Positions 3,323 through 20,848 of a stretch of DNA of 32,000 nt are shown piece after piece. The DNA is taken from the NCBI GenBank assembly GCA_964640155.1, contig CAZXEQ010000001.1, positions 576,403-608,402 on the forward strand, read 5' to 3'. A program made the translations under genes and the position numbers. Each line of letters begins with the position of its first letter. The first letter of the stretch is position 1. This DNA comes from an uncultured bacterium (GTDB lineage: Bacteria > Auribacterota > JACPWU01). The notes below the pieces were generated by a model that saw only the letters and a list, made by a program, of their open reading frames with translations, was not told the DNA's origin and made no database searches.

Positions 3323-3327
3323 TTTTC

Positions 3328-5623: not shown

Positions 5624-6526
5624 CTAATGTCCCAATCCTCTCATCATTTTGTAACTATGTAAAACAGCTGGGAAGATCGCATTTAACGTCTCGCGAACTC
5701 CGTTTGAAGAACCTGGAAGATTTAGAATAATCGTACTCCCCTTCTGCCCTGCAAGACCCCTAGATAACATGGCATAAGGCGTTCTTCGCTGGCCATAAGA
5801 ACGAGCTGCTTCCATGATGCCGGGTATCTCCCGATCCATCACCTCTCTAGTTGCTTCTACCGTCACATCTCTTGGCCCGAGGCCCGTGCCACCTGTTGAA
5901 ATGATCAAGGGCACTCCCTGATGACATAGTTCTTCGAGTTTGGCCTGAATCAAATCCTTTTCATCGGGAAGGACAATATATTCGGAGATGATCCCGAGCG
6001 CCTCAAGACGCTCTTTTATGATTTTTCCGGATTTGTCCTGTCTCGTCCCCTTAAAAGTTCCATCGGACGTAACGATCACTGCCGCGGAAAAACCCTTCGG
6101 GATCGTCTCCTCGAAATCTGATTTTCCTCCTGTTTTTGAGATAAGCTTAGTCGACACTATCTCTAGTTCCTTGTCGATAGGCTTTAGCATGTCATAAATC
6201 GTGAGCGCCGAAATCGAGGCAGCCGTCAAGGCTTCCATTTCTACCCCAGTTTTCCAAATAGCCCAAACGGTTGAAGTGATTAAGATTTTATCGGACTGAA
6301 CATCAAACTGAATATCAACTGAGTCAATGGAGAGAGGATGACAATATGGAATTAACTCCGATGTCTTCTTGGCTGCCATAATACCTGCAACACGAGCGAC
6401 GACCAAAACATCTTTCTTAGGAAGGTCATTTTCGAGCAATTTGCAAATCGTATCAGGTTTTGCGACCACCGTGCTTGTGGCCGAAGCCTCTCTGAGTGTT
6501 TCGATTTTGTCAGTAATTGATTTCAT
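5624..6526 (-). CDS. moaC: Bifunctional cyclic pyranopterin monophosphate synthase MoaC fused to a MogA/MoaB-type molybdopterin adenylyltransferase domain
   Basis: The N-terminal half has MoaC motifs (IPYCHPLSIDSVDIQF, TGVEMEALTAASISALTIYDMLK). The C-terminal half has the MoCF_biosynth signature (ISTGGTGLGPRDVT, LNLPGSS). Confidence 0.85.
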   Translation of the reverse strand: MKSITDKIETLREASATSTVVAKPDTICKLLENDLPKKDVLVVARVAGIMAAKKTSELIPYCHPLSIDSVDIQFDVQSDKILITSTVWAIWKTGVEMEALTAASISALTIYDMLKPIDKELEIVSTKLISKTGGKSDFEETIPKGFSAAVIVTSDGTFKGTRQDKSGKIIKERLEALGIISEYIVLPDEKDLIQAKLEELCHQGVPLIISTGGTGLGPRDVTVEATREVMDREIPGIMEAARSYGQRRTPYAMLSRGLAGQKGSTIILNLPGSSNGVRETLNAIFPAVLHSYKMMRGLGH

Positions 6527-6585
6527 CTCTAGATCTCCCTAGTCCACCACTCGTCACTCAACACTTTTTAGTATTCACTTTTTTC

Positions 6586-7605
6586 TCATCCTCCAATGCT
6601 TCGAATGTAAGGCGTTTCGTCTAAAGCAAGGGGAACGCCGCTTCCATCCTGAAAGGGCTGATCATAGAAGAATGGATTTCCCCTGGGTTTTATTTTCACA
6701 GCATACAAGACCGCCTTAATAATCTCTTCATCGGACTGATTTGCTTTCAATAATTCTCTCACAGAGACTTCCTCATGAGAAAAAAGGCAAGGACGAATTT
6801 TTCCATCGCTCGTCAGTCTTAGGCGAGAACAGTTATCACAAAAAGGTTCTGTCAATGATGCAATAAATCCTATCTTCCCTTTACCACCTTCAAGCCTAAA
6901 AGATTGGGCAACACTGTCTGCCCGTTCAAAATCTTGAATCAAAAAATATTTCTTAGCCACAAGCTGTCGGATTCTAGACATCGGGACAAAGAGGTCTGGC
7001 TTCCAGCGGGAACCGCAAAGCGGCATAAATTCCAAAAAACGAATCTCCAAAGGGTAATCAAAGGCCAGACTCGCAAATGGAAGGATTTCATGGTCATTAA
7101 AACCCTTCAACACCACCATATTGATTTTCAAGGGGAACCCTTCTTCAAAAGATGCAACAATGGACTGAAGAACTTTTTCATAACAATTCGTACGTGTGAC
7201 TTTGCGAAAACTGCCCACCTCTAAGCTGTCAAGGCTAATATTAATTCGATCGAGTCCAGACGCCTTGAGGGGTTTGACATACTCCAACAATCGGCTTGCG
7301 TTGGTCGTTAGAGAAAGATCACGGATCCCTTCAATTTTTTTGATATCCCTGACAATATCTAATAAATCATCTCTTAAAAGTGGTTCTCCTCCCGTAAGCC
7401 TGATCCGCTCAATACCAAGACGGCTCATGATTTCAACAAAGCGAACAATTTCATCTCGTGTGAGTGTTTCATGAGCTGGCAAAACGGGCAACCCCTCTTC
7501 AGGCATACAATAGACGCAGCGGAAATTACAGCGGTCTGTGAGGGAAATTCTGAGATAGTTGATGCGTCGACCAAAGGAGTCGACCAGTATATGAGTATAG
7601 ACCAT
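6586..7605 (-). CDS. moaA: GTP 3',8-cyclase MoaA (radical SAM)
   Basis: Radical-SAM CNFRCVYC motif near the N-terminus, a C-terminal second cluster region (CDNCSRLRLTSDGKIRPCLF), and a terminal GG. Confidence 0.92.
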   Translation of the reverse strand: MVYTHILVDSFGRRINYLRISLTDRCNFRCVYCMPEEGLPVLPAHETLTRDEIVRFVEIMSRLGIERIRLTGGEPLLRDDLLDIVRDIKKIEGIRDLSLTTNASRLLEYVKPLKASGLDRINISLDSLEVGSFRKVTRTNCYEKVLQSIVASFEEGFPLKINMVVLKGFNDHEILPFASLAFDYPLEIRFLEFMPLCGSRWKPDLFVPMSRIRQLVAKKYFLIQDFERADSVAQSFRLEGGKGKIGFIASLTEPFCDNCSRLRLTSDGKIRPCLFSHEEVSVRELLKANQSDEEIIKAVLYAVKIKPRGNPFFYDQPFQDGSGVPLALDETPYIRSIGG

Positions 7606-7611
7606 CTTTCC

Positions 7612-7738
7612 TTCTCCTTTTCAATTCACCCCCATGTTATGCCGGGGATCGGGAGGCGCTCGCGTTTCCGCTCAGGCACCTTCGGTCTGACTCCCATATC
7701 CTTATCTTCAAAAGAGACTTAGGAAATCAGACTCGGAG
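7612..7738 (-). ncRNA. Candidate Moco (molybdenum cofactor) riboswitch in the moaA leader
   Basis: The minus-strand RNA reads CUCCGAGUCUGA...(44 nt)...UCAGACCGAAGGUGCCUGAGCGGAAACGCGAGCGCCUCCCGAUCC...AAAAGGAGAAGGAAAG-AUG. It contains the CUCCGAG and GCCUCCC blocks I recall as hallmarks of the Moco RNA motif. It also has a GUCUGA/UCAGAC helix, a GCG-GAAA-CGC tetraloop hairpin, and a 5' CUCC able to pair with the GGAG of the moaA SD. It has not been verified by a covariance model. Confidence 0.55.
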
Positions 7739-7746
7739 AACATGCA

Positions 7747-7926
7747 CTATTTTTCTTTTTTTTCTTCGGACTTTACGTCCTTCTCAACGTCTCGAAGCCC
7801 TTTCTTAAGGGATCGAATTCCTTCGCCAATGGCACGAGCGAGTTCTGGAATTCTCTTTGGCCCAAACAAAATAAGCACAATCGCCAAAACAATGAGAATT
7901 TCTGTCCAACCCATCTTTCCGAACAT
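7747..7926 (-). CDS. tatA: Tat translocase subunit TatA/E (59 aa)
   Basis: ATG 7926 lies after AGGAGAGG. Translation: MFGKMGWTEILIVLAIVLILFGPKRIPELARAIGEGIRSLKKGLRDVEKDVKSEEKKEK, stop at 7747-7749. It shows the classic TatA architecture: one TM helix, an FGPKR(L/I)PEL hinge and an amphipathic helix. It is below the ORF-track cutoff. The listed plus-strand ORF 7742..7942 is its antisense shadow. Confidence 0.85.
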   Translation of the reverse strand: MFGKMGWTEILIVLAIVLILFGPKRIPELARAIGEGIRSLKKGLRDVEKDVKSEEKKEK

Positions 7927-7982
7927 AAGGGACCTCTCCTAGATTCAAATTAAGATGCTAAAACACTTGCAAATAAAGTTAT

Positions 7983-7996
7983 ATGATCTATATCAT
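7983..7996. promoter_or_regulatory. FNR/CRP-family-like palindrome ATGAT-CTAT-ATCAT upstream of tatA
   Basis: A perfect 5-4-5 palindrome with a TGAT-N4-ATCA core (FNR consensus TTGAT-N4-ATCAA). Its centre lies 63.5 nt upstream of the tatA ATG. It matches the site at 16921-16934 at 13 of 14 positions. A -10-like TAGCAT follows 22 nt downstream on the minus strand. Confidence 0.45.
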
Positions 7997-8358
7997 AAAA
8001 ATTTATTTTCTGCTGCCTTGCGATCCACCATCCTAACAGCAGGAGTATCGTTCACTGTCCGGCAGGCGATTTCACACATCCCGCAACCGTCACAGATAGA
8101 GGGGACAATCATCGGTTTTAGGTCCTTCATTTCAATGGCTTCGTCACGACGCGGACAGGCAACATAACAAAGCTGACAATTCGATCCTGCCCAGGCCAGA
8201 CAACGGCTGACATCAATTCTGGCAATTTTGGGCATAAATTCTTCCGATTTTGCACTTTGAGAAAATTCATTTGTAACAGATCTCAATTCATTCAAGAAAA
8301 ACCGAGGGAAAGATTTAAAAAATTCCCTGCGACTCGTCAAAGAATCAGGCGATCTCAT
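7993..8358 (-). CDS. NapF-like 2x[4Fe-4S] ferredoxin with a vestigial twin-arginine motif
   Basis: It carries the Cys motifs C-x7-C-x2-C-x3-CP and C-x2-C-x2-C-x3-C. The N-terminus has SRREFFK, but the following segment is not hydrophobic (SFPRFFLNELRSVTNEF), so it is probably not exported. Its start overlaps the stop of the upstream 307-aa gene by 14 nt. Confidence 0.7.
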   Translation of the reverse strand: MRSPDSLTSRREFFKSFPRFFLNELRSVTNEFSQSAKSEEFMPKIARIDVSRCLAWAGSNCQLCYVACPRRDEAIEMKDLKPMIVPSICDGCGMCEIACRTVNDTPAVRMVDRKAAENKFL

Positions 8359-9268
8359 TTAAAAACCTCAGCCGGGATAAATATAGTTCAAAACATTGCC
8401 GGCAAATGCTGGAAGACGAAAGCCACTCAGGGTAGTCTTTTCTGATTTCATCCATGACCAAGGTCTTTTCTTCTAATGAATCCCAATTAAACTTGTCAAC
8501 ATAAGGAAATCCACACAACGAGCAGTGAAAACTCTCCCGTCGCCCCCCTTCCCCAGATTCAGCCTCTTTCGCAATCTGTATCAATTTACCTTGAGTTAAC
8601 AACCGACTGCTGAAAAGATCTTGAAATACGGTTTCTTGTTTTTCATCAATCCAGGAAGAAAAGGCTTTGCTAAAACTTAAAAAAAGTTCATCCTGAGTCA
8701 TATGAGAAAAGTGACCCGCCTTTATGATGCGCTTTGTAATATAGATATTCCACAAAAGGCGGAAACGATCGCGCGCAAGGTCATTTTCTACTTCACAAAA
8801 TCCTCCCAGATCAGCATCCGGAGAATATTGAAAAGAGGGATCCAGCATATCGGAGATATGATACAGTTCATAGCGCAAGAAGGACTCGAAAAGAAGAAGA
8901 TTTCCAAGCCCGTCAATCTGCAGGCCCAAAAGAACAGTCTTTAAATGCCCATCGACATAAAGTTGCGCCCCCTCTTCTTTTCGATTCCACACCCTCTTGA
9001 CAAATAGAAGAATGCCAGAATCATTCAAAAGATGGAATTCTGAAAGTACATTCTCAAAAATAAAACGCAATCCCAGCTTTGAGAAGAATTCTTCAAAGAA
9101 ACTCTGAAATCTCCGTTCTCTCTGGGGGCCTTGGAAATGTTCGTAGATTTGGATTCTTTGAAGGTGGAAAGAGTCCACAAAGGGCTGATCTCTTCTTTTC
9201 TCAAGAGAACGAATCCCAAAAAATACCGCTTCTTCAATGAAAGAAGGCTCAAACTTTAAATTCATCAT
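8345..9268 (-). CDS. Hypothetical protein (307 aa) with C-terminal CxxC-x36-CxxC zinc-ribbon-like motif
   Basis: A long ORF with no antisense competitor of comparable quality, translationally overlapped with the ferredoxin gene. I recognise no family. C-terminal region: HCSLCGFP...ICRQCFELY. Confidence 0.6.
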   Translation of the reverse strand: MMNLKFEPSFIEEAVFFGIRSLEKRRDQPFVDSFHLQRIQIYEHFQGPQRERRFQSFFEEFFSKLGLRFIFENVLSEFHLLNDSGILLFVKRVWNRKEEGAQLYVDGHLKTVLLGLQIDGLGNLLLFESFLRYELYHISDMLDPSFQYSPDADLGGFCEVENDLARDRFRLLWNIYITKRIIKAGHFSHMTQDELFLSFSKAFSSWIDEKQETVFQDLFSSRLLTQGKLIQIAKEAESGEGGRRESFHCSLCGFPYVDKFNWDSLEEKTLVMDEIRKDYPEWLSSSSICRQCFELYLSRLRFLNEIA

Positions 9269-9324
9269 TTTTATGTTCCAGAACTAGAATAGATTATAGT
9301 CTGTCAAAAACTCTCATTTGTACA

Positions 9325-9444
9325 GGCTGCTCAAAAAGAGCCAGATTCAAGGCGCGTGCAAACGACCGCGGAGGCGTACGTTTGATGGTACGCCTCACAA
9401 GGAAGCGCAGCGCGAAACGCAGAAGATGGCCTTTTTCAGCGGCC
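9325..9444. repeat. GC-rich ~120-nt palindromic intergenic element
   Basis: The outer imperfect arms are ggctgctcaaaaagagcc (9325-9342) and ggcctttttcagcggcc (9428-9444). The inner perfect 9-bp stem-loop is GAGGCGTAC-gtttgatg-GTACGCCTC (9371-9396). The right arm overlaps the last codons and stop of the chaperone gene. Confidence 0.55.
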
Positions 9445-10191
9445 TGTCAAACAAGAAACACAGCCCGTCTCCAGCTTCTCTTGTATTTTGCGAATGGGTA
9501 AATCTCTTGGACCAGGCTTCACGCCTGATTTTTCACAATCACTCAACGTAAAACAAAAAGCAAACTCAGCAATGGAATGCATCAATCCAATACCCGCAAA
9601 GTTGGAAAGACGAAGCGTAAGAGCGGGAAGCCACTGTCCCAGATGATTTTCTAGGAAGCTCTTTGCGGCCTCTCGACAAACAAAAGCCTTCTCTTCACCA
9701 TGATTCTCCAGCGTATACGCAGTCTTATAAAGAAGGTAATACATAAATTCGCACTCGCAAGAAACGTGATCTACTCTTTCGTGTGCAGCCTCAGCCACTT
9801 TCAAGCCAAAGGCTTGATAAAAAGCTGAAATATCGGAGAGTTCCTGAGGTTGACGATGACTATGTTCCTCCCCATATTCCAATTCATAGGCAGGGATTGT
9901 CCCACATACGGTATGACCAAAAGCTCTTTCGTAATGGTTAATCCATTCTTCGTCACTCGACCGATGAAGTTGTTCCAGCAGAGACTTCAGAATATTTCTT
10001 AACTCATCGGCCCGTGGAATACGCATAACGTCTAACCAGTGTTCCCAGGTCAAACCCGTTTCATTTACAAAATTCCGACCGAGGCCTGCCTTGGGATGTC
10101 TAAATAAAGAGGCTAGAAGCTGATAGAAAAAGCTCCTGCCTAAAAGCTCTTGAATATCAGATGGAGTTTTGGTGTCTGTCGGGCCGAACAT
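9436..10191 (-). CDS. TorD/NarJ-family redox-enzyme maturation chaperone (delta subunit)
   Basis: A soluble, helix-rich protein placed directly after the beta subunit, as in narGHJ/serABD. It has TorD-like FYQLLASLFRHP and AFYQAFGL segments. The start is placed at ATG 10191 (MFGPTDTK), overlapping the beta-subunit 3' end by 35 nt. The start position is uncertain. Confidence 0.7.
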   Translation of the reverse strand: MFGPTDTKTPSDIQELLGRSFFYQLLASLFRHPKAGLGRNFVNETGLTWEHWLDVMRIPRADELRNILKSLLEQLHRSSDEEWINHYERAFGHTVCGTIPAYELEYGEEHSHRQPQELSDISAFYQAFGLKVAEAAHERVDHVSCECEFMYYLLYKTAYTLENHGEEKAFVCREAAKSFLENHLGQWLPALTLRLSNFAGIGLMHSIAEFAFCFTLSDCEKSGVKPGPRDLPIRKIQEKLETGCVSCLTGR

Positions 10192-11395
10192 AGAATGGCT
10201 CCTCCACTTGAGTTCGAATGATTTCTTTTCCCTCTTGGTTAAAACCAATCACCGTGTCGTTATACATCGTGAACGGCTTCCCATGAATTTCAGTTTCATA
10301 AACCTTCGGGCCTTCTTCTATTTCATAGCTAAAAATAATCTTGTTCGTTTTTCTGAAGAGTTGAAGGACCGCCAAAAGTTCACGGTTAGGGACTTTGTAA
10401 GACTCTATCGCATGATCCACGCCCGGACCGAACATTTGGGTGAGATAGCTCCTAGGGACCCAACGCGGCGGGATATAGTAACCATTAGGCTGAGTCCCAA
10501 ATTGAGGATAAAGAGGAAGCGCCACCTTGGCAACCTTCACCAAATAATAAATCGGATTATAACGGTCTTCAACCCACTGGCCGTTTTCTCCCATTTTCAC
10601 AAGCCCTTGAAGCCTTATTTGACCAATGCAGGCCGCCATACAACGGGTTTCCATCGGCTGCCCTTCTGCTTCCGGATCCTTCCCTTCCAAGCGAGGAAAG
10701 CAGGCGATACATTTTTCTGTGACACGAGTGGTCGCTCGATACATAGCCTTTTTATAGGGACAGGCCTCTACGCACTTGCGATAACCCCGGCAGCGCTCTT
10801 GATCCACCAAGACGACACCGTCTTCTGGCCGCTTGTAAATGGCATTGCGCGGGCAGGCCGCCAGACACCCAGGATAGGTGCAATGGTTGCAGAGCCGGGC
10901 CAAATAAAAAAACCAAGTCTTGTGAACAGGTAGAGTTGCCCCTTCCGTATCGTAGGTGTCAGGCTTTCCTGGCTTTGAGACCGCTGTGTCTTCATACATG
11001 TTTGGAAATCGCCACTCCTCGTCTGTCGGTAGATAGCCCAGAACCCTCTGGGGCTCAGCTCCGATATTCTTTTGAGCGGCTTCAAAAATTGTTTTCCCGT
11101 CAAAAGTATCGCCTTTCCATTTCTGAGCGCCTGGGTTGGCCTGCTCCAATAAATTCAACAATTTGATATCCCAGAATTGGGGATAACCACCATAAGGTTT
11201 TGTCTCTACATTGGCCCACCACATGTATTCCTGCCCTTTGGAAAAGGTCCAGGTCGTCTTGCAAGCGAACGAGCAAGTTTGACAAGCAATGCAGCGGTTT
11301 AAATTAAATACGAAGGCAAACTGTCGCTGGGGATAGTGTCCCGCATGAGGATACTCCATCTTTCTATTTAATTGCCAGTTGAACACCTGACTCAT
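10157..11395 (-). CDS. nxrB: Type II DMSO-reductase-family Fe-S beta subunit (NarH/NxrB-like)
   Basis: Four ferredoxin-type Cys groups are present (CIACQTCSFACK, CNHCTYPGCLAACP, CRGYRKCVEACP, CIACFPR). It has no signal peptide, consistent with Tat hitch-hiking on the alpha subunit. The ATG overlaps the orf103 stop (ATGA). Confidence 0.9.
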   Translation of the reverse strand: MSQVFNWQLNRKMEYPHAGHYPQRQFAFVFNLNRCIACQTCSFACKTTWTFSKGQEYMWWANVETKPYGGYPQFWDIKLLNLLEQANPGAQKWKGDTFDGKTIFEAAQKNIGAEPQRVLGYLPTDEEWRFPNMYEDTAVSKPGKPDTYDTEGATLPVHKTWFFYLARLCNHCTYPGCLAACPRNAIYKRPEDGVVLVDQERCRGYRKCVEACPYKKAMYRATTRVTEKCIACFPRLEGKDPEAEGQPMETRCMAACIGQIRLQGLVKMGENGQWVEDRYNPIYYLVKVAKVALPLYPQFGTQPNGYYIPPRWVPRSYLTQMFGPGVDHAIESYKVPNRELLAVLQLFRKTNKIIFSYEIEEGPKVYETEIHGKPFTMYNDTVIGFNQEGKEIIRTQVEEPFYVRPDRHQNSI

Positions 11396-11703
11396 ACATT
11401 ATCTCCTTTTTCTCCGAAGAACGAATCAGCCGACGCTTTATGGCGAATAGGCTGCCAGATCCCTATTGCTTCTTTGATCACAGATAGCACAAATGAATCT
11501 CCCTTTTGACGCCACACAAGATGCGGCCCCAGATAAAAGGGATTTCTAAACATCGCCAGAAGCTTTTCCTCGTTCCAACCATCACGAGCAAATTCCTCCG
11601 CGTAACAAAGCACCATATCTCGAACTTCAGCTTCACTCTGGCCAGGCAACTCCACTCCAATCATTTCCATGGGATCTTCAGGATCAAATTCTTTTTTCAC
11701 CAT
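11392..11703 (-). CDS. Hypothetical 103-aa cytoplasmic-type protein inserted between the alpha and beta subunit genes
   Basis: The ATG sits inside the last alpha-subunit codons (AAATGGTGA), preceded by GGAGGAG. The stop overlaps the beta-subunit ATG. It has no signal peptide or TM segment and is acidic at the N-terminus. I recognise no family. Confidence 0.6.
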   Translation of the reverse strand: MVKKEFDPEDPMEMIGVELPGQSEAEVRDMVLCYAEEFARDGWNEEKLLAMFRNPFYLGPHLVWRQKGDSFVLSVIKEAIGIWQPIRHKASADSFFGEKGDNV

Positions 11704-14700
11704 TTCTCATTCTCCTCCCCGCCCATCGTTATAAACCCGCCGTCCAAGTACTTTTTCATAAATTCGTTTTCACTCGAGGGAGTAAAGCCCGTTGTCGCGG
11801 GCTTCCAAATTCCTTTCCCACCCATTCCACCGTCCTCGGCTTTCGTAATTCGAACCAGGGCCTCCTTGGGAACCGTGTTCACCGCGTGATTATCGGCTTC
11901 TCCTCCAAAAATAAATGAGAGGTTAACCTTGGCCTTGTGAAATAAGGTATCCGTCTGATGCATCGGCATATGCCAATTTCGTGTCACACTCTGCTGGGAT
12001 CCATAGCGAAAATTGGCTTGATAAGCACCCCCTTCAGAGAGCGCTCTTTTGTCGGCACGAGTCTCATGAGCCTTCACTGTTTTCTCCGTCGCAATATAAG
12101 TCCCATGTTTCATCATCACCGTGTGATAGGGAAAAGCCGGATTATACTTCACTCGCAGCATGAGCCGCGCCACTTTATAAAACGGGTCGCTGGGCTTTGC
12201 TCCGACATAGGGCCGATCGGCTGGATTAGCATCCACATAAACGTAATCCCCGTCATTGACACCAAGGTCCCTGGCCGCTTCAGGATTCAAATGAATTTGC
12301 TGTTCGCCGACACCAGGCGTACGCTTGTCCATACGATAAGGATCCCCAAAATTCGAATCCCAAATTTCATGCCAGTCCACATTGCTCCATAGGGAATGTA
12401 CCCTGTGACGGCTTTTGGGTGTAAGGCAATAAAACTTAAAGCCCCTCTCCCAAAGAAAATTCTTCGTTTCCTTTACATCTTCCCATGGAAGCTTGACGTT
12501 TCGTACCGTCCGGTTGTCCCAATGTTCTGCCGTTTCAGAAATGCCGTAGTCATTGGGACGAACATAGGGGTTTGAACTGACAATAACGTTTGGAAGAAAG
12601 GGCGTTGCTTCCGGCCCCTCTCGATGAACAATAAAGTTCTCCCCATATTCGATGGCCTCTGGAACATCCGTATAGGCATTCAAACGGCCTGTGTCGGTGA
12701 AGAAGGGCTGGTCTTCATGAATCTGTTCCCAAAAAGGAACTCTGGGGTATGTTCTAAAGAGCATCAGGGCACCGCCAGGGGGCCCATATTTTCCAGCCAT
12801 AATATCTTCAAGCTTGTATCCGGCCGTCGTTGTAGAGGAATCAAGAAGTCGTTGAATGTAAACTTCCCGCTGTCCCTCCAGTGCGAATTTCCAATAATCG
12901 TAGAATCGATGATCCTGCGTGATTTGGCCCAGTTTCTCGGCAATCCCAGCCAAAATCATAATATCGTCTCGACTGTCAAAGATGGGCTTAATCCCGCCTT
13001 TCCAAATCTGCAGAAAAGGGTTGGAGCAGGAAGCCGTTACCTCAAGACCCTCGAACTCCATCCAGCTATTGGCTGGGAGGGCAATATCGGCATATTCTAT
13101 GGAGGCCGTCATTTGAATATCAACGGAAACAATCATCTCCACATTTGGATTCACATTTTTAATCATGTCGTAGGCGTGCTTCGCGTTATTGATGAGATTG
13201 ACATTGGTAAAGATCATGGCCTTGGTAGGTGAGGGCATATGCGTCTGGCCCGTAAAGACCTTCCTTCCCTCACTGGGTGTGTCCACGATAAGAGGCCGAT
13301 CGCCGTGATTCCAATACGCGGGCTCCTCATCCTTGCAATACCCTTTAACATGCACATCTTTCCCAGGGGCATTAGGATCTAAAAGCGGATGAAACGGATC
13401 TTCGGCGACCCATCCTTTAAATCCATAACCCGTCCAAGGGGATCCTTGGAACAAAGCGGCCTTATAGTTTCCGGCCCACGTGTGGCAGCCCGCACCGGGT
13501 TTACCAATATTTCCCGTGAGCATCAGAGGCAAATAGGCCGCGCGGTTCATTTCAGTCGCATGAAACCAGTGATTGATTCCCTCTCCTTGATGGATGGCCG
13601 CTGGTTTAATCGTCGCAAGATCTTTGGCCAACTGTTCGATCAGATGTTTTGGCGCTTTCGTTATATCAGCGACACTGTCCAAATCGTAATCCTTCAGATG
13701 AATCTCATAAAGAGAAAAGAGTGTCATCACCTCCACTTCTTTTCCGTCAATCATCTGAACTTTGAATTTTCCCTGAAGGGCAGGTCTGATCCCTTTCTTG
13801 GCAAATTGCTCGCCAACATCGTCTCGGGTTAACGCGGCAGGTGCATTTCTTAATTCATCCCATACTACAAAATCCCCGAGTTTCTGATACTGCTCATCTT
13901 TCAACCCCTGATACTTGAAACTCGGACCCTCTTTTGAAAGGCCCAGAGCATAATCTTTGAAGATTTCATGCGCCCTCAAGCGCTTTAAATTGTCCGTACG
14001 CACAAGCAATGGAAAATCCGTGAACTTCTCGATAAAATCCCGATCATACCAGCCTCGATCGATCATAAGACGAGCAACTCCGAGAAAAAACGCAGCATCC
14101 GTCGCCGGGCGAATGGGAATCCAAGTGTCTGATTTCGTTGAAGGCGGGCTATATTCGGGGGTAATCGTCACAAGCTTTGCCCCACGCTCCATACACTCAA
14201 TAAACCAATGGCTGTCTGTAATTTTGTTTTCGACAAGATTTTTTCCCTGCTGAATAATCAGTTTACTGTTTCGAAGATCGTTGAAATCGCAATCAGAGGC
14301 CTGAAGGCCATGAACCCAGGGATGTCCAGGCGCCTGATCCCCATGCCAGGTATAATTGGACCAGATCCGGCCGGCTTTTGCGTCCTCTTCCTTCACGCCG
14401 CGCACATGCGTGTCAAGGATGGCCATCGTATTTGCCAGGCGATACATTCCATATTTTCCAAAAACGCCGAGAAGTCCCATCCCGCCACGAAATTTCATGG
14501 TTCTCATCCCAGATCCTTCCATTGGAGCAAGCATCTCTTCCGGATACCCTTGCTCAAGTAACTTCTTTTTTCCCTCTTCACCGCTGTAACGCTTTGAGAT
14601 GGCCATGAGACCTTTCGCAATATAGGTATTCGCTTCATCCCATGAGACTTTATCTAAAGTATCTGTTCCTCTGGAATCAAATTTGTATTTGGACTTACAC

Positions 14701-15161
14701 TCGGGTGTTAAGTCTGGAAAGCCGGCATCCGCCCATTCCTTCCAGCCTCGGCGAATAATGGGGTACTTAAGCCGATAAGGTCCGTACATCAATCGATGAA
14801 ATGTGAAGCCCTTTTCGCATTGACGCGGATTCCAATTGGGGGTCGCCTTGTTCCCGTAGAGATCCCCATAAGTCTCATAGTCATATTGCGACCCCAGGCG
14901 CACCACGATGCCGTTTCTAACAAAAGCCTTAGCTCGACATGCGTGGGTATCATTGGGAGAACAAACCCAGGAGAAAGCGCTATCGTAACGATATTGATCT
15001 CGATAAATTTTCTCCCAATCTCTGTTGGGATAATACTCTAGAGGATTCGTGATTTCTGGAATAACCTCAAGAGCCGAAAGCGAAAGATTTTTCAGTCCCA
15101 GGCTTAAGCCAATCGCCGCAGCGCCAGTTCTTTTGATAAATTGCCTTCTCGTGATTTCCAT
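11697..15161 (-). CDS. nxrA: Tat-exported molybdopterin catalytic alpha subunit, type II DMSO reductase family, periplasmic NXR (NxrA)/NarG-like
   Basis: It has the twin-arginine signal MEITRRQFIKRTGAAAIGLSLG. The FS0 motif is C67-x3-D71-x3-C75...C115 (WVCSPNDTHACRAKAFVRNG...NPRQCEKG), aligning with NarG H-x3-C-x3-C...C. YTWHGDQAPG aligns with the NarG Mo-ligand Asp segment (SWYSDLPP). At 1154 aa it is close to the size I recall for NxrA of Nitrospira and Kuenenia (about 1,150 aa). Confidence 0.9.
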   Translation of the reverse strand: MEITRRQFIKRTGAAAIGLSLGLKNLSLSALEVIPEITNPLEYYPNRDWEKIYRDQYRYDSAFSWVCSPNDTHACRAKAFVRNGIVVRLGSQYDYETYGDLYGNKATPNWNPRQCEKGFTFHRLMYGPYRLKYPIIRRGWKEWADAGFPDLTPECKSKYKFDSRGTDTLDKVSWDEANTYIAKGLMAISKRYSGEEGKKKLLEQGYPEEMLAPMEGSGMRTMKFRGGMGLLGVFGKYGMYRLANTMAILDTHVRGVKEEDAKAGRIWSNYTWHGDQAPGHPWVHGLQASDCDFNDLRNSKLIIQQGKNLVENKITDSHWFIECMERGAKLVTITPEYSPPSTKSDTWIPIRPATDAAFFLGVARLMIDRGWYDRDFIEKFTDFPLLVRTDNLKRLRAHEIFKDYALGLSKEGPSFKYQGLKDEQYQKLGDFVVWDELRNAPAALTRDDVGEQFAKKGIRPALQGKFKVQMIDGKEVEVMTLFSLYEIHLKDYDLDSVADITKAPKHLIEQLAKDLATIKPAAIHQGEGINHWFHATEMNRAAYLPLMLTGNIGKPGAGCHTWAGNYKAALFQGSPWTGYGFKGWVAEDPFHPLLDPNAPGKDVHVKGYCKDEEPAYWNHGDRPLIVDTPSEGRKVFTGQTHMPSPTKAMIFTNVNLINNAKHAYDMIKNVNPNVEMIVSVDIQMTASIEYADIALPANSWMEFEGLEVTASCSNPFLQIWKGGIKPIFDSRDDIMILAGIAEKLGQITQDHRFYDYWKFALEGQREVYIQRLLDSSTTTAGYKLEDIMAGKYGPPGGALMLFRTYPRVPFWEQIHEDQPFFTDTGRLNAYTDVPEAIEYGENFIVHREGPEATPFLPNVIVSSNPYVRPNDYGISETAEHWDNRTVRNVKLPWEDVKETKNFLWERGFKFYCLTPKSRHRVHSLWSNVDWHEIWDSNFGDPYRMDKRTPGVGEQQIHLNPEAARDLGVNDGDYVYVDANPADRPYVGAKPSDPFYKVARLMLRVKYNPAFPYHTVMMKHGTYIATEKTVKAHETRADKRALSEGGAYQANFRYGSQQSVTRNWHMPMHQTDTLFHKAKVNLSFIFGGEADNHAVNTVPKEALVRITKAEDGGMGGKGIWKPATTGFTPSSENEFMKKYLDGGFITMGGEENEKW

Positions 15162-15170
15162 TGCAAACTC

Positions 15171-16850
15171 CTATTGTTGAAGTTCCAAATCGTTCCATAT
15201 AGAAATCATCTTTTGACCATTTCGATCCTTTTTGGAACCGTCCCAAATCGCAAATGCAACATTTAAAGGAGTTCCAAGTTCAAATTGCAATCTTTCTTTT
15301 TCCTTGGTCTTCAGCTTTCTTTTGAATACCACTTGCCATGTCCCATCCCTCCAAATTCCATGAGCCTCGATGTTTTCAAACTGGGGTTTCATCGTTGTCA
15401 GAGTTCCCAGCCCCTTGGCGCGGGCTTCTTCAGCTGAAGATTTACTCAGGGGATTTGAAAGAGGATTTCCAGCGCCCCACCCCGTAATAAATTTGGGGTC
15501 ATGAAATTGAGTCTTAGAATCCTTTGTTTCAAACGGACTGCCATACTCATAGTTCTTTTGGGCCTCGTACCAATCCGTCGCAGTATTTGGGTATTGCATT
15601 TCAACATCTTTCCATTCCTTCATGTCTTCCTGCCGAGATGCCTTCCAATGCCAGATGGATACTGCACTTTGAGCACTCCCCATTCCAAAAAAAGGCGGAT
15701 CTTCTTCCGTAGAAAATTGAATGGCGGCCCCATCTGAAAAAGACTGCGGATTTAATGTCGAGATATCCTTAGTCCGATCTTTCCAACTTAAGCGAATCTC
15801 GATTTCTTCTTCATTATACGAGACGCTCACATCAACACCCTCAATCCTGTCGTCTCTCCACCATAATGGGGTTAAAGCAACAAAGGAAGGCTTTGCCGTT
15901 TTCCAGTAAGCCGCTTGAGGATTGAGATCCAGTTTCTCCTTTGTTTTTACAGCAATGATCGTCATCCGACGTATGATAGAACGCTCCTCGGCCCCTGGTT
16001 GCGGAAGGGTTTGCACAAAATGAATTAAATCCCAGATCTGATCTTCTTTAAGAGCTTTGGCGTAACTTGGCATGGGAGAGCCCGGTAAACCTGCAACGAT
16101 CCGATCATAAAGAGCGCTCGAATTTGATTCCCCTTTAAAAATGCCAGATGTAAGGTCTCTGGGTTTAGTGGGAAAGCCCAAACTGTCCTTCATCGTTTGC
16201 TGTCCATCTCCCTTACCTTCCTGGCCATGACAAGAAGCGCACGCCTTTACAAAAAGTTCTTTCCCCCGCTGAACACTCTGTGGATTGGCCGGAGATTCAT
16301 TCGGCACTTGAATCACAGTTTTGGGATCCACGGACGTCGTCAGCATTTTCTCGATTGTCTTCCAAGAAACCTCCTTCACATCCGGGGAAATCTCTCCCGT
16401 CTTCACGTGATTTTGATATTCTGCCAAATACCTCACGTAATAGACCAAGGCCCAGCGGTCTTGATCACTCAAGTGCTCCCAAGAAGGCATCGAAGAACCC
16501 GGCATTCCCCTCGTAATCGTCTTGAACAAGTCTTCGTTGGTTGCCTTCATTTGAGTTGTCGAGACCAAACGAAATTCATTTCGCGTAAAATCACGCGGTT
16601 TCGGATAAAGAAGATAAGAGGCTTGGCCCTCCCCCGCTCCTTTCTCCCCATGACAAACCGCGCATTGTTTTTCAAACAAGGCCTTACCCTTCATAAATGC
16701 TTCCCGTGTCGGAACGGGTTTTTCAACGAGAAATGTATCAGCGCTTCTTTCGGATTCTTGCGCAAAAACAAAAAGGGGGAAAGCCGTAAATAATAAGAAA
16801 ACGCAAAGGCAGGTCACTTGCACAAAAATTCTTTTGCGGCCTTGAATCAC
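15171..16850 (-). CDS. nxrC: Fused gamma subunit: Sec signal, two class-I c-type cytochrome domains, and a C-terminal EbdC/NxrC-like haem-b domain
   Basis: The signal peptide ends ...FPLFVFA-QE. Two CxxCH motifs (CAVCH, CASCH) each have a downstream Met-Pro motif (GSSMPSW, GSPMPSY). The C-terminal ~260 aa resemble the type II DMSOR haem-b gamma subunit (AAIQFS...FFGMGS...VSIWHWKA...NVAFAIWDGS). There is no C-terminal TM anchor. GTG start is preceded by AGAGGG. Confidence 0.8.
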   Translation of the reverse strand: MIQGRKRIFVQVTCLCVFLLFTAFPLFVFAQESERSADTFLVEKPVPTREAFMKGKALFEKQCAVCHGEKGAGEGQASYLLYPKPRDFTRNEFRLVSTTQMKATNEDLFKTITRGMPGSSMPSWEHLSDQDRWALVYYVRYLAEYQNHVKTGEISPDVKEVSWKTIEKMLTTSVDPKTVIQVPNESPANPQSVQRGKELFVKACASCHGQEGKGDGQQTMKDSLGFPTKPRDLTSGIFKGESNSSALYDRIVAGLPGSPMPSYAKALKEDQIWDLIHFVQTLPQPGAEERSIIRRMTIIAVKTKEKLDLNPQAAYWKTAKPSFVALTPLWWRDDRIEGVDVSVSYNEEEIEIRLSWKDRTKDISTLNPQSFSDGAAIQFSTEEDPPFFGMGSAQSAVSIWHWKASRQEDMKEWKDVEMQYPNTATDWYEAQKNYEYGSPFETKDSKTQFHDPKFITGWGAGNPLSNPLSKSSAEEARAKGLGTLTTMKPQFENIEAHGIWRDGTWQVVFKRKLKTKEKERLQFELGTPLNVAFAIWDGSKKDRNGQKMISIWNDLELQQ

Positions 16851-16920
16851 TGGAAAGCCCTCTTTAAAGTTGTATAAATATTTCAGAGTTTAATTTTCCA
16901 TGATTTACAATGAGATAGAC

Positions 16921-16934
16921 ATGATCTAAATCAT
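16921..16934. promoter_or_regulatory. FNR/CRP-family-like palindrome ATGAT-CTAA-ATCAT upstream of the nxr-like operon
   Basis: A perfect 5-4-5 palindrome with a TGAT-N4-ATCA core. Its centre lies 77.5 nt upstream of the gamma-subunit GTG. -10-like hexamers GAAAAT and TAAACT follow 22 and 28 nt downstream on the minus strand. It is a near-identical twin of the site at 7983-7996. Confidence 0.45.
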
Positions 16935-16953
16935 ATTTATAATTTTTAATAAT

Positions 16954-17158
16954 TTAATCCTTATGGAAATGATACAAAATTCTCTCTCGATTCTCATTTT
17001 CCTCATCACCCTTAAAATAAATTTCTGTCAATGTGATAATATCTTGCACTTCATCATATCCGTAAATAACTCGAAACCTGAGTCCATTCCTCTTCCTTTT
17101 CCTTTAAGAGACCTGCAGGCGAATTTCTGAGATGATTGCTAGGAAGGCGAAAAGTCAT
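16954..17158 (-). pseudogene. Possible frameshifted RelE/ParE- or HigB(Gp49)-like toxin remnant
   Basis: One frame reads MTFRLPSNHLRNSPAGLLKEKEEEW... A frame shifted by one base continues NGLRFRVIYGYDEVQDIITLTEIYFKGDEENENRERILYHFHKD, stop at 16954-16956. The RFRVIY...I.L..IY.K pattern is reminiscent of RelE-superfamily toxins. This is a weak call made by eye. Confidence 0.3.
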
Positions 17159-17423
17159 TTTAACTTTTATGTACCAGTAGGATAAAATGGTTAGGTGAGT
17201 GTGCCTAGTCTCCTTTTCAAAAACGAGAGCGTCACGTTCTCCATCTTTATCTGGGGCTTCTTTGCGATGACAATAAAGTAGTACCGGTCTTGTTATAAAA
17301 TAATAAAAGGGGACAAACACACCTTTTGCAGAGGTTTTAATTTATGATATTCTAATTAGATATTTCCTTGAGACCTAAAGGAGATTTTCCCTTTTAGAAT
17401 ATAAAAAACAAATAGGATTAAAA

Positions 17424-18392
17424 ATGATCGTTGTTACAGGTGGCGCAGGGTTTATTGGAAGTGCTATGGTGGCCAAGCTCAATGAGAAGGCTATCACAGA
17501 TATTCTCATTGTGGATGATTTAGGCTCTTCATCTAAATGGAAAAATCTGATTGGGAAAAATTTTAAAGATTATCTGCATAAAGATCATTTCATAGATTCT
17601 GCTATCAATGACAGACTACCGAAAATTGAAGCTATTTTCCATATGGGGGCAAACTCTTCTACCACAGAAGCTGATGTTGACCATTTGATGGAAAATAATT
17701 ATCGCTATACCAAAATATTGTCCGAATGGTGCATTAGAAAGAAAACACGCTTCATTTATGCCAGCAGTGGTGCTACCTATGGAGACGGATCCCATGGCTT
17801 CAGCGATGAAGATGAAACTACTTTCAAACTTTCTCCCCTGAATGCTTATGGTTATTCAAAACAGATTCTTGATCTTTGGCTCTTGCGAAATCATCTCGAC
17901 AACAAAGTTGTTGGTATAAAATTTTTTAATGTATTTGGACCCAATGAATATCATAAAGGAGAGATGCGCAGCCTGGTATGCAAAGCCTATGAGCAAATCC
18001 AAGAAACGGGCAAAGTTCGACTTTTTAAATCCTATAAACCTGAATATCTGCATGGAGAACAACTTCGTGATTTTGTGTATATCAAAGATTGTACGGAAGT
18101 TTTATGGTGGTTTTTAAACGCTCCTAAAATCAATGGAATTTTTAATTTAGGAACGGGACATGCGAGGTCATGGAATGACTTAGCAAAAGCAATCTTCTCG
18201 GCGCTTTCTCTCCCCCAAAAAATTGAATACATAGATATGCCTGAAATTTTAATGCCGATGTATCAGTATCGAACCGAAGCAGAAATTAAAAAATTGAAAA
18301 ATGTGGGATGTCCTGTACAATTTCAAACCTTAGAAGATTCGGTAAAAGACTATGTGCAGAATTTCTTGCATCCGAAAAAGAGATATTTATAA
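17424..18392 (+). CDS. hldD: ADP-L-glycero-D-manno-heptose 6-epimerase
   Basis: Close full-length resemblance to E. coli HldD/RfaD (MIVVTGGAGFIGS...ITDILIVDDL...EAIFHMGANSSTTE...YGYSK...FFNVFGPNEYHKG...GIFNLGTG). Confidence 0.9.
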   Translation: MIVVTGGAGFIGSAMVAKLNEKAITDILIVDDLGSSSKWKNLIGKNFKDYLHKDHFIDSAINDRLPKIEAIFHMGANSSTTEADVDHLMENNYRYTKILSEWCIRKKTRFIYASSGATYGDGSHGFSDEDETTFKLSPLNAYGYSKQILDLWLLRNHLDNKVVGIKFFNVFGPNEYHKGEMRSLVCKAYEQIQETGKVRLFKSYKPEYLHGEQLRDFVYIKDCTEVLWWFLNAPKINGIFNLGTGHARSWNDLAKAIFSALSLPQKIEYIDMPEILMPMYQYRTEAEIKKLKNVGCPVQFQTLEDSVKDYVQNFLHPKKRYL

Positions 18393-18447
18393 TGGTTTTC
18401 AACTTTAGATTTAGTTCCAACAATTTTCTTATATAAAAGGAAAGAAA

Positions 18448-19479
18448 ATGAAAAAGAAAGTTCTTTTAAAAGAAGTAATTCAACAAGTGGATGCCACAAA
18501 ATTTGATGCAACAGCAATCATTGATGCCATGCGCGAAATGTCTTTTAGCTCACGAGATACGGCACGTGCAGCCGATATTTTTTCTAGGATGATTGCCCAT
18601 AAAGATTGCACCATCTTTTTATCTCTTGCAGGTAGTACCAGTGCAGGGGGTTGTATGAATGTATATTCAGATATGATCAAATACAACATGATTGACGCTG
18701 TCGTTGCAACCGGGGCTTCCATTGTCGATATGGATTTCTTTGAAGCACTAGGCTTCAAACATTATAAAGGAACTCCTTTTATAGATGACTCTATGCTTCG
18801 CAACAACTATGTCGATCGTATTTATGACACTTTTATTGATGAAGAAGAATTACAGGCTTGTGATGCTACAATTAAAAAGATCACAGATACTCTTGAACCT
18901 CGTCCCTACTCTTCTAGAGAGTTCATACGAGAAATGGGGAAATATTTACAGAAATTTTCAAAGAAGAAAAATTCTTTGGTCCAACTTGCTTATGAAAACA
19001 ATATCCCCATTTTTTGTCCTGCTTTTACAGATTCAAGTGCTGGTTTTGGTTTGGTCATGCATCAACATGAGAGAATCAAACAGGGAAAACCCTATGTTTC
19101 CATTGATTCTGTAAAAGATTTTTATGAGCTGACACAAATCAAAATGAAGGCAAAAACTTCGGGTTTATTTATGATTGGTGGAGGCGTTCCCAAAAATTTT
19201 ATTCAGGATACCGTCGTTTGCGCGGAATGTTTAGGCGTGGAAGTCCCCATGCATCAATATGCCATACAGATTACGGTTGCAGATGTCCGTGATGGCGCCT
19301 GTTCTAGTTCTACATTGAAAGAAGCCAGTTCATGGGGGAAAGTGGATACCATCTATGAACAAATGGTTTATGCAGAAGCTACAACAGTTGTCCCCTTGAT
19401 TTTCAGTTATCTGTATCACAATGCGGATTGGAAAAAACGTAAGAAATTCCAATGGACTCAGATGTTTGAAGGAAAGTAA
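18448..19479 (+). CDS. Deoxyhypusine synthase-like protein (bacterial DHS family)
   Basis: The size (343 aa) and motifs are typical of the DHS family (FLSLAGSTSAGGC, DAVVATGASIVDMD, MIGGGVPKNF, SWGK). Confidence 0.7.
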   Translation: MKKKVLLKEVIQQVDATKFDATAIIDAMREMSFSSRDTARAADIFSRMIAHKDCTIFLSLAGSTSAGGCMNVYSDMIKYNMIDAVVATGASIVDMDFFEALGFKHYKGTPFIDDSMLRNNYVDRIYDTFIDEEELQACDATIKKITDTLEPRPYSSREFIREMGKYLQKFSKKKNSLVQLAYENNIPIFCPAFTDSSAGFGLVMHQHERIKQGKPYVSIDSVKDFYELTQIKMKAKTSGLFMIGGGVPKNFIQDTVVCAECLGVEVPMHQYAIQITVADVRDGACSSSTLKEASSWGKVDTIYEQMVYAEATTVVPLIFSYLYHNADWKKRKKFQWTQMFEGK

Positions 19480-19486
19480 AAGTATG

Positions 19487-19620
19487 TATAAAAGCGTGTA
19501 CTTTATATATGCGGGTGACACTCGGCGGGGAGCCCCGCCGCGCGCAATTTTTTATGAGCACGGTGGGGCTGACGAGTGGCAGGCCCTGCTACTTTTTTAA
19601 AAGTACACCCTTTTAATTAC
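19487..19620. repeat. Structured intergenic repeat, copy A (~134 nt, long imperfect hairpin with terminal inverted repeats)
   Basis: It aligns without gaps to 24482-24615; I counted 109/134 identities. The closing helix is aagcgtgtact (19492-19502) with agtacaccctt (19602-19612). An inner helix pairs cactcg (19519-19524) with cgagtg (19573-19578). Another pairs AGCCCC (19531-19536) with GGGGCT (19565-19570). It starts 8 nt after the DHS-like stop codon. Confidence 0.75.
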
Positions 19621-19675
19621 AATATCAAGAAAGTAAAAGAACTCTTATCTCCTTTAAAAATCAATTCCGCTCTGC

Positions 19676-19681
19676 TATAAT
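19676..19681 (+). promoter_or_regulatory. Candidate -10 box (TATAAT) placed for a leaderless pilT transcript
   Basis: A perfect TATAAT ends 6 nt before the pilT ATG (19688). There is no SD between them and no in-frame alternative ATG before the conserved ASDLHL region. Confidence 0.35.
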
Positions 19682-19687
19682 GATGTC

Positions 19688-20809: not shown

Positions 20810-20848
20810 ACTGGAAATACTCTACCGTACTGGCAAACATGAATTTAT

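Follow-up and report, generated by a model that had tools for sequence, protein, structure and literature searches.

A 32-kb stretch of contig CAZXEQ010000001.1 from an uncultured bacterium, referred to here as the window and setting the limits for all statements on the presence or absence of neighbouring genes, encodes on its minus strand an enzyme that by sequence is assigned to the periplasmic nitrite oxidoreductase (pNXR) lineage of Nitrospira, Nitrospina and the anammox bacteria, within the type II dimethyl sulfoxide (DMSO) reductase family. A preliminary description, made from the sequence alone, had proposed this assignment for positions 9436-16850. The finding is real and was correctly interpreted, but it is less unusual than was thought at the time: the enzyme is of a known and widely distributed kind, and nitrite oxidoreductase (NXR)-like clusters in non-nitrifier phyla have already been reported. 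The positions given first take in the structural genes but leave out half of the functional unit, which is a 14.5-kb island (2313-16850, minus strand) that continues for a further 7 kb, down to position 2313.

Subunits, cofactors and family of the enzyme

The alpha subunit (11697-15161, minus strand, as are all genes of the island; 1154 aa) begins with MEITRRQFIKRTGAAAIGLSLGL, in which the Tat motif (MEITRRQFIK) is followed by a hydrophobic core and which matches TIGR01409, in agreement with the consensus Tat signal TRRQFIK recognised earlier. It contains a molybdopterin oxidoreductase domain (PF00384, 1.4e-35), and by far its best match in the PDB is NxrA of Kuenenia stuttgartiensis (7B04_B, 1842 bits, residues 1-1145), with weaker, partial alignments to PcrA (217 bits), EbdA (168) and NarG (~120). 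The identities in MAFFT alignments are 64.4% to Kuenenia NxrA over 956 residues and 30% to E. coli NarG. Published reference identities for pNXR are about 60% or more within the type, about 40% for Nitrotoga and Hydrogenobaculum and about 20% for NarG and Nitrobacter (PMC8387239, Extended Data Fig. 1); measured against Kuenenia only, the alpha subunit lies above the ~60% mark. Similarity to the structurally characterised NXR extends to the other two subunits, for which there are NxrB and NxrC matches as described below, and the earlier assignment to the periplasmic Nitrospira/anammox type is upheld.

When the alpha subunit is aligned with Kuenenia NxrA and E. coli NarG (MAFFT), C67, N70, D71, C75, C115 and D275 fall in the same columns as the residues of the same numbers in Kuenenia, and as H50, N53, C54, C58, C93 and D223 of NarG (D223 is D222 in mature numbering). 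The FS0 motif reads C67-x3-D71-x3-C75-x39-C115, with Cys and Asp where NarG has His and Cys, and the candidate molybdenum ligand Asp275 sits in TWHGD275Q. Both motifs had been read correctly in the preliminary description, and Asp71, whose equivalence to the second FS0 ligand had been the point to check, does align with NarG C54 and Kuenenia D71. In the crystal structure of the Kuenenia enzyme FS0 is held by three Cys and Asp71, as compared with three Cys and one His, at the position of Cys67, in nitrate reductase (NAR) and ethylbenzene dehydrogenase (EBDH); Asp275 binds molybdenum, and Asn70, which is Ile in EBDH, faces the substrate (Chicano et al., 2021, PMC8387239). The earlier statement that an Asp in FS0 is a hallmark of periplasmic NxrA is borne out by this structure. 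The window alpha subunit is accordingly predicted from its aligned residues to bind a molybdenum-bis(molybdopterin guanine dinucleotide) cofactor through Asp275 and an FS0 cluster through three Cys and one Asp. A search with alpha as query, covering one genome per GTDB species, returned at least 594 genomes with a relative, and loci were compared for the best 80 of these; alpha keeps the Tat motif, CSPNDTH[AS]C, WHGDQ and every ligand column in 80/80.

The features by which type II DMSO reductases are recognised are present, namely the Asp molybdenum ligand, the FS0 motif in alpha and a four-cluster ferredoxin as beta. The corresponding NCBIfam models score below their trusted cut-offs (alpha, TIGR03479, 364.5 against 984.75; beta, TIGR03478, 249.4 against 480.7; gamma, TIGR03477, 129 against 169.85; chaperone, TIGR03482, 71.6 against 152.3). 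The EbdA model NF042978 gives 180.8 on alpha against a cut-off of 2000, which speaks against membership of the Ebd/Pcr/Clr/Ser/Ddh group, and the enzyme is not a NarGHI either: TIGR01580 reaches 146.6 bits where the cut-off is 1084, alpha has a Tat signal and there is no membrane subunit. By NCBIfam scores, PDB scores and the tree described below, alpha does not branch within Ebd/Pcr/Ser or NarG. Its operon departs from the canonical nxrA-nxrB(-nxrC) order and from an NxrC with haem b alone, while the other sequence features of pNXR are all found.

The beta subunit (10157-11395, 412 aa) matches Kuenenia NxrB over its full length (7B04_A, 608 bits), as well as Fer4_11 and TIGR03478 (4e-74). Its motif cysteines fall into four groups, one of which (CRGYRKC...C) has three Cys, as in [3Fe-4S] sites, and beta is predicted to carry four further Fe-S clusters. 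A hydrophobicity scan detected no signal peptide in beta, as had been stated, and no hydrophobic stretch. The gamma subunit (15171-16850, 559 aa) contains an NxrC/EbdC-type haem-b domain as part of a larger protein, in which a Sec-type signal peptide is followed by two class-I cytochrome c domains (Pfam Cytochrom_C twice, with CAVCH63 and CASCH204) and a C-terminal EB_dh domain (PF09459, 1.7e-27). Alignment to 7B04_C puts Met390 (FFGMG) opposite Met155 and Lys547 (NGQKM) opposite Lys305, the haem-b ligands of Kuenenia NxrC (PMC8387239). By sequence, gamma is thus a tri-haem fusion with two haem c and one Met/Lys-ligated haem b. Its cytochrome part resembles PDB 6H5L_B, annotated as 'conserved hypothetical cytochrome protein' in a Kuenenia HAO entry, and haem c sites combined with a haem-b domain have been described in the 'alternative NxrC' of Nitrospina gracilis (Lucker et al., 2013, PMC3578206). 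The signal peptide of gamma (gamma residues 6-33) is the only transmembrane-like segment found in the operon proteins, and the complex, which has no membrane anchor, should be soluble in the periplasm.

A TorD/NarJ-like chaperone, delta, follows beta, as the preliminary description had it (9436-10191, 251 aa from the ATG at 10191, in an open reading frame (ORF) that reaches 10248; PF02613, TIGR03482), and a small protein of 103 aa, x103 (11392-11703), is encoded between alpha and beta. Start and stop codons overlap at alpha/x103, x103/beta and beta/delta, and again between two accessory genes downstream, those for p307 and a ferredoxin; this indicates co-translation and is typical of one operon. 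In the scheme that we propose, alpha and beta would be folded in the cytoplasm with the aid of delta, x103, p307 and the NapF/G-like ferredoxin, loaded with molybdenum cofactor (Moco) from the riboswitch-controlled pathway of the island and then co-exported via Tat, after which alpha-beta would dock onto gamma in the periplasm. The cofactors would form a complete wire from Mo through FS0, FS1-4 and haem b to the two c haems, along which electrons would be passed on to soluble carriers in the periplasm or taken up from them.

The characterised enzyme most like this one is that of Kuenenia (7B04), in which the ligand numbering and the Met/Lys ligation of haem b are the same, alpha is also exported by Tat, the complex is likewise soluble without an anchor and a TorD-like chaperone is present. 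It differs in its gene order, alpha...beta-gamma, and in having a gamma without the extra N-terminal dihaem cytochrome c domain, whereas no NXR-T (tubule-forming) cytochrome, bd-like, cupredoxin or anammox genes lie near the operon in the window. The NXRs of Nitrospina gracilis and Nitrospira can be likened to it by description: they share the periplasmic orientation, the hitch-hiking beta and the soluble, Sec-exported gamma (PMC3578206), as well as an accessory set with a TorD-like chaperone and a putative zinc-finger protein. The alternative NxrC of Nitrospina, with one to three haem c sites and a haem-b domain, corresponds to the window gamma; however, the operon of Nitrospina has the order nxrABC, its NxrC binds haem b alone and the genes for the alternative form lie elsewhere, whereas in the window the alternative type is the sole gamma and its gene the first.

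The two more distant families share part of this design. E. coli NarGHI (1Q16) belongs to the same superfamily and has the same chemistry, the Asp molybdenum ligand, the Asn next to FS0, a four-cluster beta and a NarJ/TorD-type chaperone, but NarG, at ~30% identity, is cytoplasmic and without a Tat signal, its FS0 is of the His-x3-Cys-x3-Cys form, and its partner is a membrane dihaem-b NarI that oxidises quinol. EbdABC, PcrAB, Clr and Ser are likewise soluble enzymes of the periplasm, built from alpha, beta and gamma and exported by Tat; they have a delta chaperone and a gamma of the EB_dh type, with Met/Lys-ligated haem b, and they too exchange electrons with soluble cytochromes c. Their sequences nevertheless give low-scoring partial matches, FS0 of EBDH is of the His type, and EbdA has Ile in place of Asn70.

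Direction of the reaction

We see about an even chance that the host is an anaerobe in which the enzyme reduces nitrate with electrons from cytochrome c. It would in that case be a respiratory or electron-sink nitrate reductase of its host, supplied by the cytochrome c pool and switched on via two Crp/FNR-type boxes. TGAT-N4-ATCA palindromes occur three times in the window, against 0.96 expected, and two of the three are near-identical (ATGAT-N4-ATCAT): TGATCTAAATCA (16922-16933), the centre of which lies 77 nt upstream of the gamma start codon, and TGATCTATATCA (7984-7995), upstream of tatA. In the closest copy of the island among the matches listed, locus L083 (contig JACOUC010000030, GCA_016178055.1, NCBI name 'Chlamydiae bacterium'; related loci are referred to by such L numbers), boxes are found at both equivalent places (2203, 83 nt upstream of gamma, and 11270), even where the surrounding DNA no longer aligns. 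Locus L004 has a box at 16895, upstream of moaA, and the Methylomirabilota locus L032 carries a perfect TTGATCTAGATCAA ~150 nt upstream of gamma. Genes for Crp-family regulators adjoin the module in three Omnitrophota-type loci (L002, L013 and L017), and Rrf2 regulators do so in 16 loci overall.

The neighbours of the related operons point the same way. Among 107 ORFs around Omnitrophota-type loci (21 clade members) the families that recur include NrdD (anaerobic ribonucleotide reductase), PFOR, NnrS, hemerythrin, Crp and Rrf2 regulators, TatC, cytochrome c maturation and radical-SAM proteins, and the 25 most frequent families include no haem-copper oxidase. It is these anaerobic and nitric oxide-stress neighbours, together with the Crp/FNR-type boxes, that favour nitrate reduction, and an Omnitrophica genome has previously been read as that of a hydrogen-driven nitrate reducer (Speth, 2016, PMC4821891). 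The Kuenenia enzyme, for its part, has been called bidirectional (PMC10732223).

Several considerations weigh against nitrate reduction and lend substance to the reverse reaction, in which the enzyme would oxidise nitrite in the periplasm in vivo and would send the electrons via haem b and both c haems to a soluble carrier and on to a terminal oxidase or some other acceptor of high potential, the host gaining lithotrophic or supplementary energy or a means of nitrite detoxification. NXR is reversible, which makes the evidence on direction circumstantial; we know of no sequence feature that fixes the direction of NXR or NAR; and, as high-potential carriers, the Met/Lys-ligated haem b and the c-type haems are just as fit for nitrite oxidation. 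The Crp-family regulators of the relatives do not have the N-terminal Cys cluster of oxygen-sensing FNR. The closest characterised enzymes, that of Kuenenia (by structure and activity) and, by literature, those of Nitrospira and Nitrospina, oxidise nitrite in vivo, and the FS0, Asn70 and Asp275 sites are identical to those of Kuenenia. A role as high-potential carriers has been proposed for the haems of the alternative NxrC of Nitrospina (PMC3578206). Four loci, on Methylomirabilota contigs and one Omnitrophota-type contig (L021, 6177-6992; L029; L032; L036), have an ORF resembling cytochrome c oxidase subunit II close to the module, although the one in L021 overlaps x103 at a contig end and may be an assembly artefact. 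Finally, nitrite oxidation has been the function favoured for similar clusters, including those of Planctomycetota (Dalcin Martins, 2023, PMC10732223; Poghosyan, 2020, bioRxiv 10.1101/2020.05.19.103440).

Against this stand the general setting of the operon and of its relatives. By Pfam and gene-call annotation the 32 kb contain no oxidase, no NarK-type transporter and no carbon-fixation gene, in line with the earlier observation that a membrane anchor, a terminal oxidase and a nitrite/nitrate transporter are missing; the permeases present are a TauE-family protein (4877-5623) and a generic MFS protein (393-1673). Oxidase and carbon-fixation genes are equally absent from the most frequent Omnitrophota-type neighbours, among which NrdD, PFOR and radical-SAM proteins indicate anaerobic life, and FNR-type boxes are present. 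The module is moreover found in more than a dozen phyla, mostly heterotrophic or anaerobic, and an organism with such a cluster has been judged an unlikely nitrite oxidiser (Speth, 2016, PMC4821891). We regard nitrite oxidation in vivo as possible but on the whole unlikely. Leaving the direction open, as the preliminary description did, was the right call.

That the true substrate is another one altogether (chlorate, perchlorate, selenate or an unknown compound that is hydroxylated or oxidised), with nitrate or nitrite turnover as a side activity, seems very improbable: substrates have diversified repeatedly in type II DMSO reductases (Ebd, Ser, Clr, Pcr and Ddh appear as weaker matches), pNXR-like enzymes lie beside chlorite dismutase on soil contigs (Barnum and Coates, 2022) and the gamma-first clade stands apart from Kuenenia at 70% bootstrap, but Asn70, the proposed substrate-coordinating residue that is Ile in EbdA, and all other ligands are invariant across the clade, identity to a proven NXR is 64%, and no chlorite dismutase gene is present in the window.

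As far as is known, nitrate has no biological source other than nitrite oxidoreductase, the gene of which, nxrA, serves as a marker for nitrite oxidisers. Enzymes of the NXR type occur far beyond the nitrifiers, in at least 594 species-level genomes that include Omnitrophota, Methylomirabilota, Binatia, Acidobacteriota, Planctomycetota and Verrucomicrobiota. If these are nitrate reducers, metagenomic 'nxr' counts overstate nitrification and overlook a cytochrome-c-linked route of nitrate reduction; if they are nitrite oxidisers, nitrate is produced by a far broader guild than has been assumed. The value of a single locus is modest, but the present one is a clean and complete example with identifiable regulatory elements that could guide expression studies or heterologous production.

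The gamma-first module and its relatives

Relatives of alpha are spread over more than a dozen phyla. Among the best 80 of the at least 594, a group at 78-86% identity is labelled Omnitrophota, with some Planctomycetales or PVC (Planctomycetota-Verrucomicrobiota-Chlamydiota) names, and a group at 70-75% comprises Methylomirabilota/Rokubacteria, Binatia, Acidobacteriota, Planctomycetota/Phycisphaerae, Verrucomicrobiia, Latescibacterota, Hydrogenedentota, Sumerlaeota, Eiseniibacteriota, Gemmatimonadota, Syntrophobacter-like metagenome-assembled genomes (MAGs), Nitrospinota and Ca. Anammoxibacter. Searches with the window proteins (tblastn) recovered the order fused gamma-alpha-x103-beta-delta-p307 in nearly all of these 80 loci. 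The gamma-alpha-x-beta-delta order that the preliminary description singled out is thus correct but not peculiar to this genome, as gamma comes first in 79/79 clade sequences with upstream DNA available. Gamma is fused in 69/78 loci, and the remainder are cut by contig ends, with the exception of L068.

A neighbour-joining (distance-based) tree of alpha with 100 bootstraps, built without Nitrospira and Nitrospina sequences and provisional in its deep branching, places the window inside a 22-member Omnitrophota-type clade (97% bootstrap), beside L002, L003 and L004 (92%). A group made up of the 79 gamma-first sequences has 70% support and leaves out three sequences that are all gamma-last: Kuenenia NxrA (residues 1-958, taken from the HMMER alignment to 7B04_B), L065, from a Nitrospinota MAG, and L068, which is of a second Omnitrophota type. 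In one Methylomirabilota locus, L028, a second alpha-beta-gamma-delta set of a different type (16608-22865) directly follows the gamma-first module; the alpha subunit of this second-type copy (L028b) is 44% identical to that of the window. In another, L032, the module is preceded by a gene (4242-7298) for a long membrane protein, parts of which resemble cytochrome c and EB_dh; this protein may be a membrane-bound alternative gamma or a docking partner.

Clusters of this lineage have been published from several habitats, and those of uncultured Planctomycetota, KSB1, Verrucomicrobiota, Armatimonadetes and Omnitrophica share with the window the Tat-exported alpha and a co-localised soluble gamma (PMC10732223; bioRxiv 10.1101/2020.05.19.103440; PMC4821891). 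They were found in 19 Planctomycetota MAGs from a subsea tunnel (PMC10732223), in Planctomycetota and Verrucomicrobiota of a drinking-water plant (Poghosyan, 2020, bioRxiv 10.1101/2020.05.19.103440), and in an anammox reactor, as an Armatimonadetes bin with an NXR-like cluster and an OP3 'nitrate reductase' (Speth, 2016, PMC4821891). Further clusters outside the nitrifiers are those of Elusimicrobia and Rokubacteria and those on the soil contigs with chlorite dismutase mentioned above (Barnum and Coates, 2022). Our loci L051, L070 and L080, which bear OFTM isolate names, appear to come from the Oslofjord tunnel study. Among cultured nitrate reducers, Thermogutta and Limisphaera have 'distant Nar' enzymes, the published order in Thermogutta being alpha-beta-gamma-delta, unlike the gamma-first one. 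We found no prior description in the literature of a six-gene module with a fused tri-haem gamma that is shared across phyla and includes x103 and p307, nor of its link to a riboswitch-controlled Moco pathway or of the FNR-type boxes.

Because of the fused tri-haem gamma, x103 and the zinc-ribbon protein p307, the occurrence in hundreds of species genomes and the separation of the clade from Kuenenia, we raise, tentatively and with some doubt, the suggestion that the gamma-first module is a functionally distinct enzyme class, not characterised so far. Such a class could be a third kind of respiratory nitrate reductase beside Nar and Nap, one that is periplasmic, soluble and fed by cytochrome c; alternatively, it could be the enzyme on which a large and so far hidden guild of facultative nitrite oxidisers depends.

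The accessory proteins of the module have few recognisable relatives. The small, helical, cytoplasmic-type protein x103 has no Pfam or NCBIfam match and no signal peptide; its AlphaFold2 model is a helical bundle with a predicted local distance difference test score (pLDDT) of 75 and without a fold match. Its position is conserved across phyla, between alpha and beta in nearly all related loci. The protein p307 (8345-9268, 307 aa), which comes after delta in most related loci, ends in a CxxC...CxxC zinc ribbon, the residues C249, C252, C289 and C292 of which are invariant among homologues. Its model (AlphaFold2, pLDDT 90.9) gave no significant PDB match and weak zincin-like ones, and a Pfam search at E <= 1 on 24 homologues returned nothing consistent. 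A reading as an HExxH protease was rejected, the first His being Tyr in the window and the second Arg in many homologues. Kuenenia, Nitrospira and Nitrospina share a set of genes that accompany NXR, and one of these encodes a 'putative zinc finger' protein (Lucker et al., 2013, PMC3578206); p307 is probably, by analogy, this protein. In five loci of the Syntrophobacter-like/Binatia group (L023, L026, L034, L038 and L041) a 360-aa protein with an N-terminal HGHxCAG is encoded just after p307; it is suspected to be FmdE-like and may perhaps be a further accessory factor of Mo/W enzymes.

The NapF/NapG-like di-cluster ferredoxin (7993-8358, 121 aa) matches Fer4 in Pfam and scores below cut-off with the NCBIfam NapG and NapF models. 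It has an RR motif with no clear hydrophobic core or hydrophobic stretch, and among the 80 loci its gene is limited to those of the Omnitrophota type. NapF has an assembly role in Nap systems, and a similar, NapF-like role is plausible for this ferredoxin.

The island and its host

The remainder of the island provides the cofactor and part of the export machinery. Downstream of the ferredoxin gene lie genes for TatA (7747-7926, 59 aa; PF02416), MoaA (6586-7605; PF04055, PF06463), a MoaC-MoaB/MogA fusion (5624-6526; PF01967, PF00994), the TauE/SafE-family anion permease (PF01925), MoeA (3570-4880; PF03453, PF00994, PF03454), MoaD of the ThiS family (3328-3573; PF02597), MoaE (2894-3322; PF02391) and MobA (2313-2897; PF12804). 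A Moco (molybdenum/tungsten cofactor) riboswitch (7598-7750, minus strand; Rfam RF01055, 50.2 bits against a gathering score of 36) is located between tatA and moaA, which implies that the cofactor genes of the island are feedback-controlled. With its own Moco pathway, Moco riboswitch and TatA, the island is self-contained.

The permease deserves comment, as a TauE-family protein has been noted at nitrate reductase loci before, at the same locus in CHB1 and with homologues in an OP3 genome, and a role in nitrite export was proposed for it (Speth, 2016, PMC4821891). In the window TauE is translationally coupled to moeA, and in L083 it is fused to MoeA (13758-15530), which suggests a molybdate- or tungstate-related role rather than nitrite export; with a periplasmic enzyme, nitrite export would in any case be unnecessary.

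The island differs in composition from its surroundings. The genome had been described as one of low GC content, which holds for the flanks (38-39%) but not for the operon itself (45-48%). The GC content at third codon positions (GC3) is 0.40-0.52 in all 15 island genes, from mobA to gamma, and 0.24-0.35 in all 13 flanking genes, which include rpsB, tsf, pyrH and frr (for example 0.41 in p307 and 0.40 in x103, against 0.31 in rpsB, 0.32 in tsf and 0.24 in frr). MobA, at 0.395, is the last GC3-rich gene, and the next gene outside has 0.309. A tRNA-Ala(CGC) gene (2081-2156, plus strand; ARAGORN and Rfam) abuts the left edge, and a tRNA gene is a classic island insertion site. The island is bracketed by a perfect 16-nt inverted repeat, GGATTAAATTATTAAA at 2302-2317 and its reverse complement TTTAATAATTTAATCC at 16945-16960, found in a repeat search; 0/2000 shuffles reached 16 nt, and the repeat is not shared with L083. 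In L083 alpha belongs to the same 90% cluster and the island is 84-87% identical at the nucleotide level, but the flanks are unrelated on both sides, and DNA homology stops at window position 16861, so that its boundary coincides with the island edge.

The GC3 contrast, the different flanks of L083, the tRNA-Ala gene and inverted repeat at the edges and the nesting of alpha in an otherwise Omnitrophota-labelled clade lead us to conclude that horizontal acquisition of the island is probable, with an Omnitrophota-like organism as the donor. The case for transfer as such is good, that for any specific mechanism of mobilisation is not: no tRNA-derived direct repeat was found at the far edge of the island, no consistent tRNA association exists among 13 related loci, and no integrase or transposase was seen in the window. 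The operon might instead have been inherited vertically, with its higher GC content reflecting the amino-acid constraint of large redox proteins and the flank differences ordinary rearrangement. The GC excess is indeed largest in the most conserved genes, alpha and beta, there is no mobility gene, and the inverted repeat is absent from L083. However, GC3 is raised in all 15 island genes, including the poorly conserved p307 and x103, and is low in the highly expressed flanking rpsB, tsf and frr; the boundary of homology with L083 is the island edge; and the alpha phylogeny cuts across phylum labels. We consider vertical inheritance improbable.

With regard to the host itself, a search of 1.8 billion cluster representatives with the ribosome recycling factor (26673-27236, minus strand) gave nothing above 52% identity, and the few named top matches, one of them from Delongbacteria, are uninformative on phylum. 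No record matched rpsB exactly. On the recycling factor the host looks like a deep, poorly sampled lineage. The recipient of the island could be a deep-branching, low-GC genome of the PVC type, the nearest relative being labelled Chlamydiota, a label which for this nearest island-bearing MAG is an NCBI name only; a search of the literature on NXR in Chlamydiae/Chlamydiota returned nothing relevant. Deoxyhypusine synthase genes are uncommon in bacteria, and the right flank of the island contains a homologue (18448-19479, plus strand; PF01916), which adjoins an ADP-heptose epimerase-like gene and pilT.

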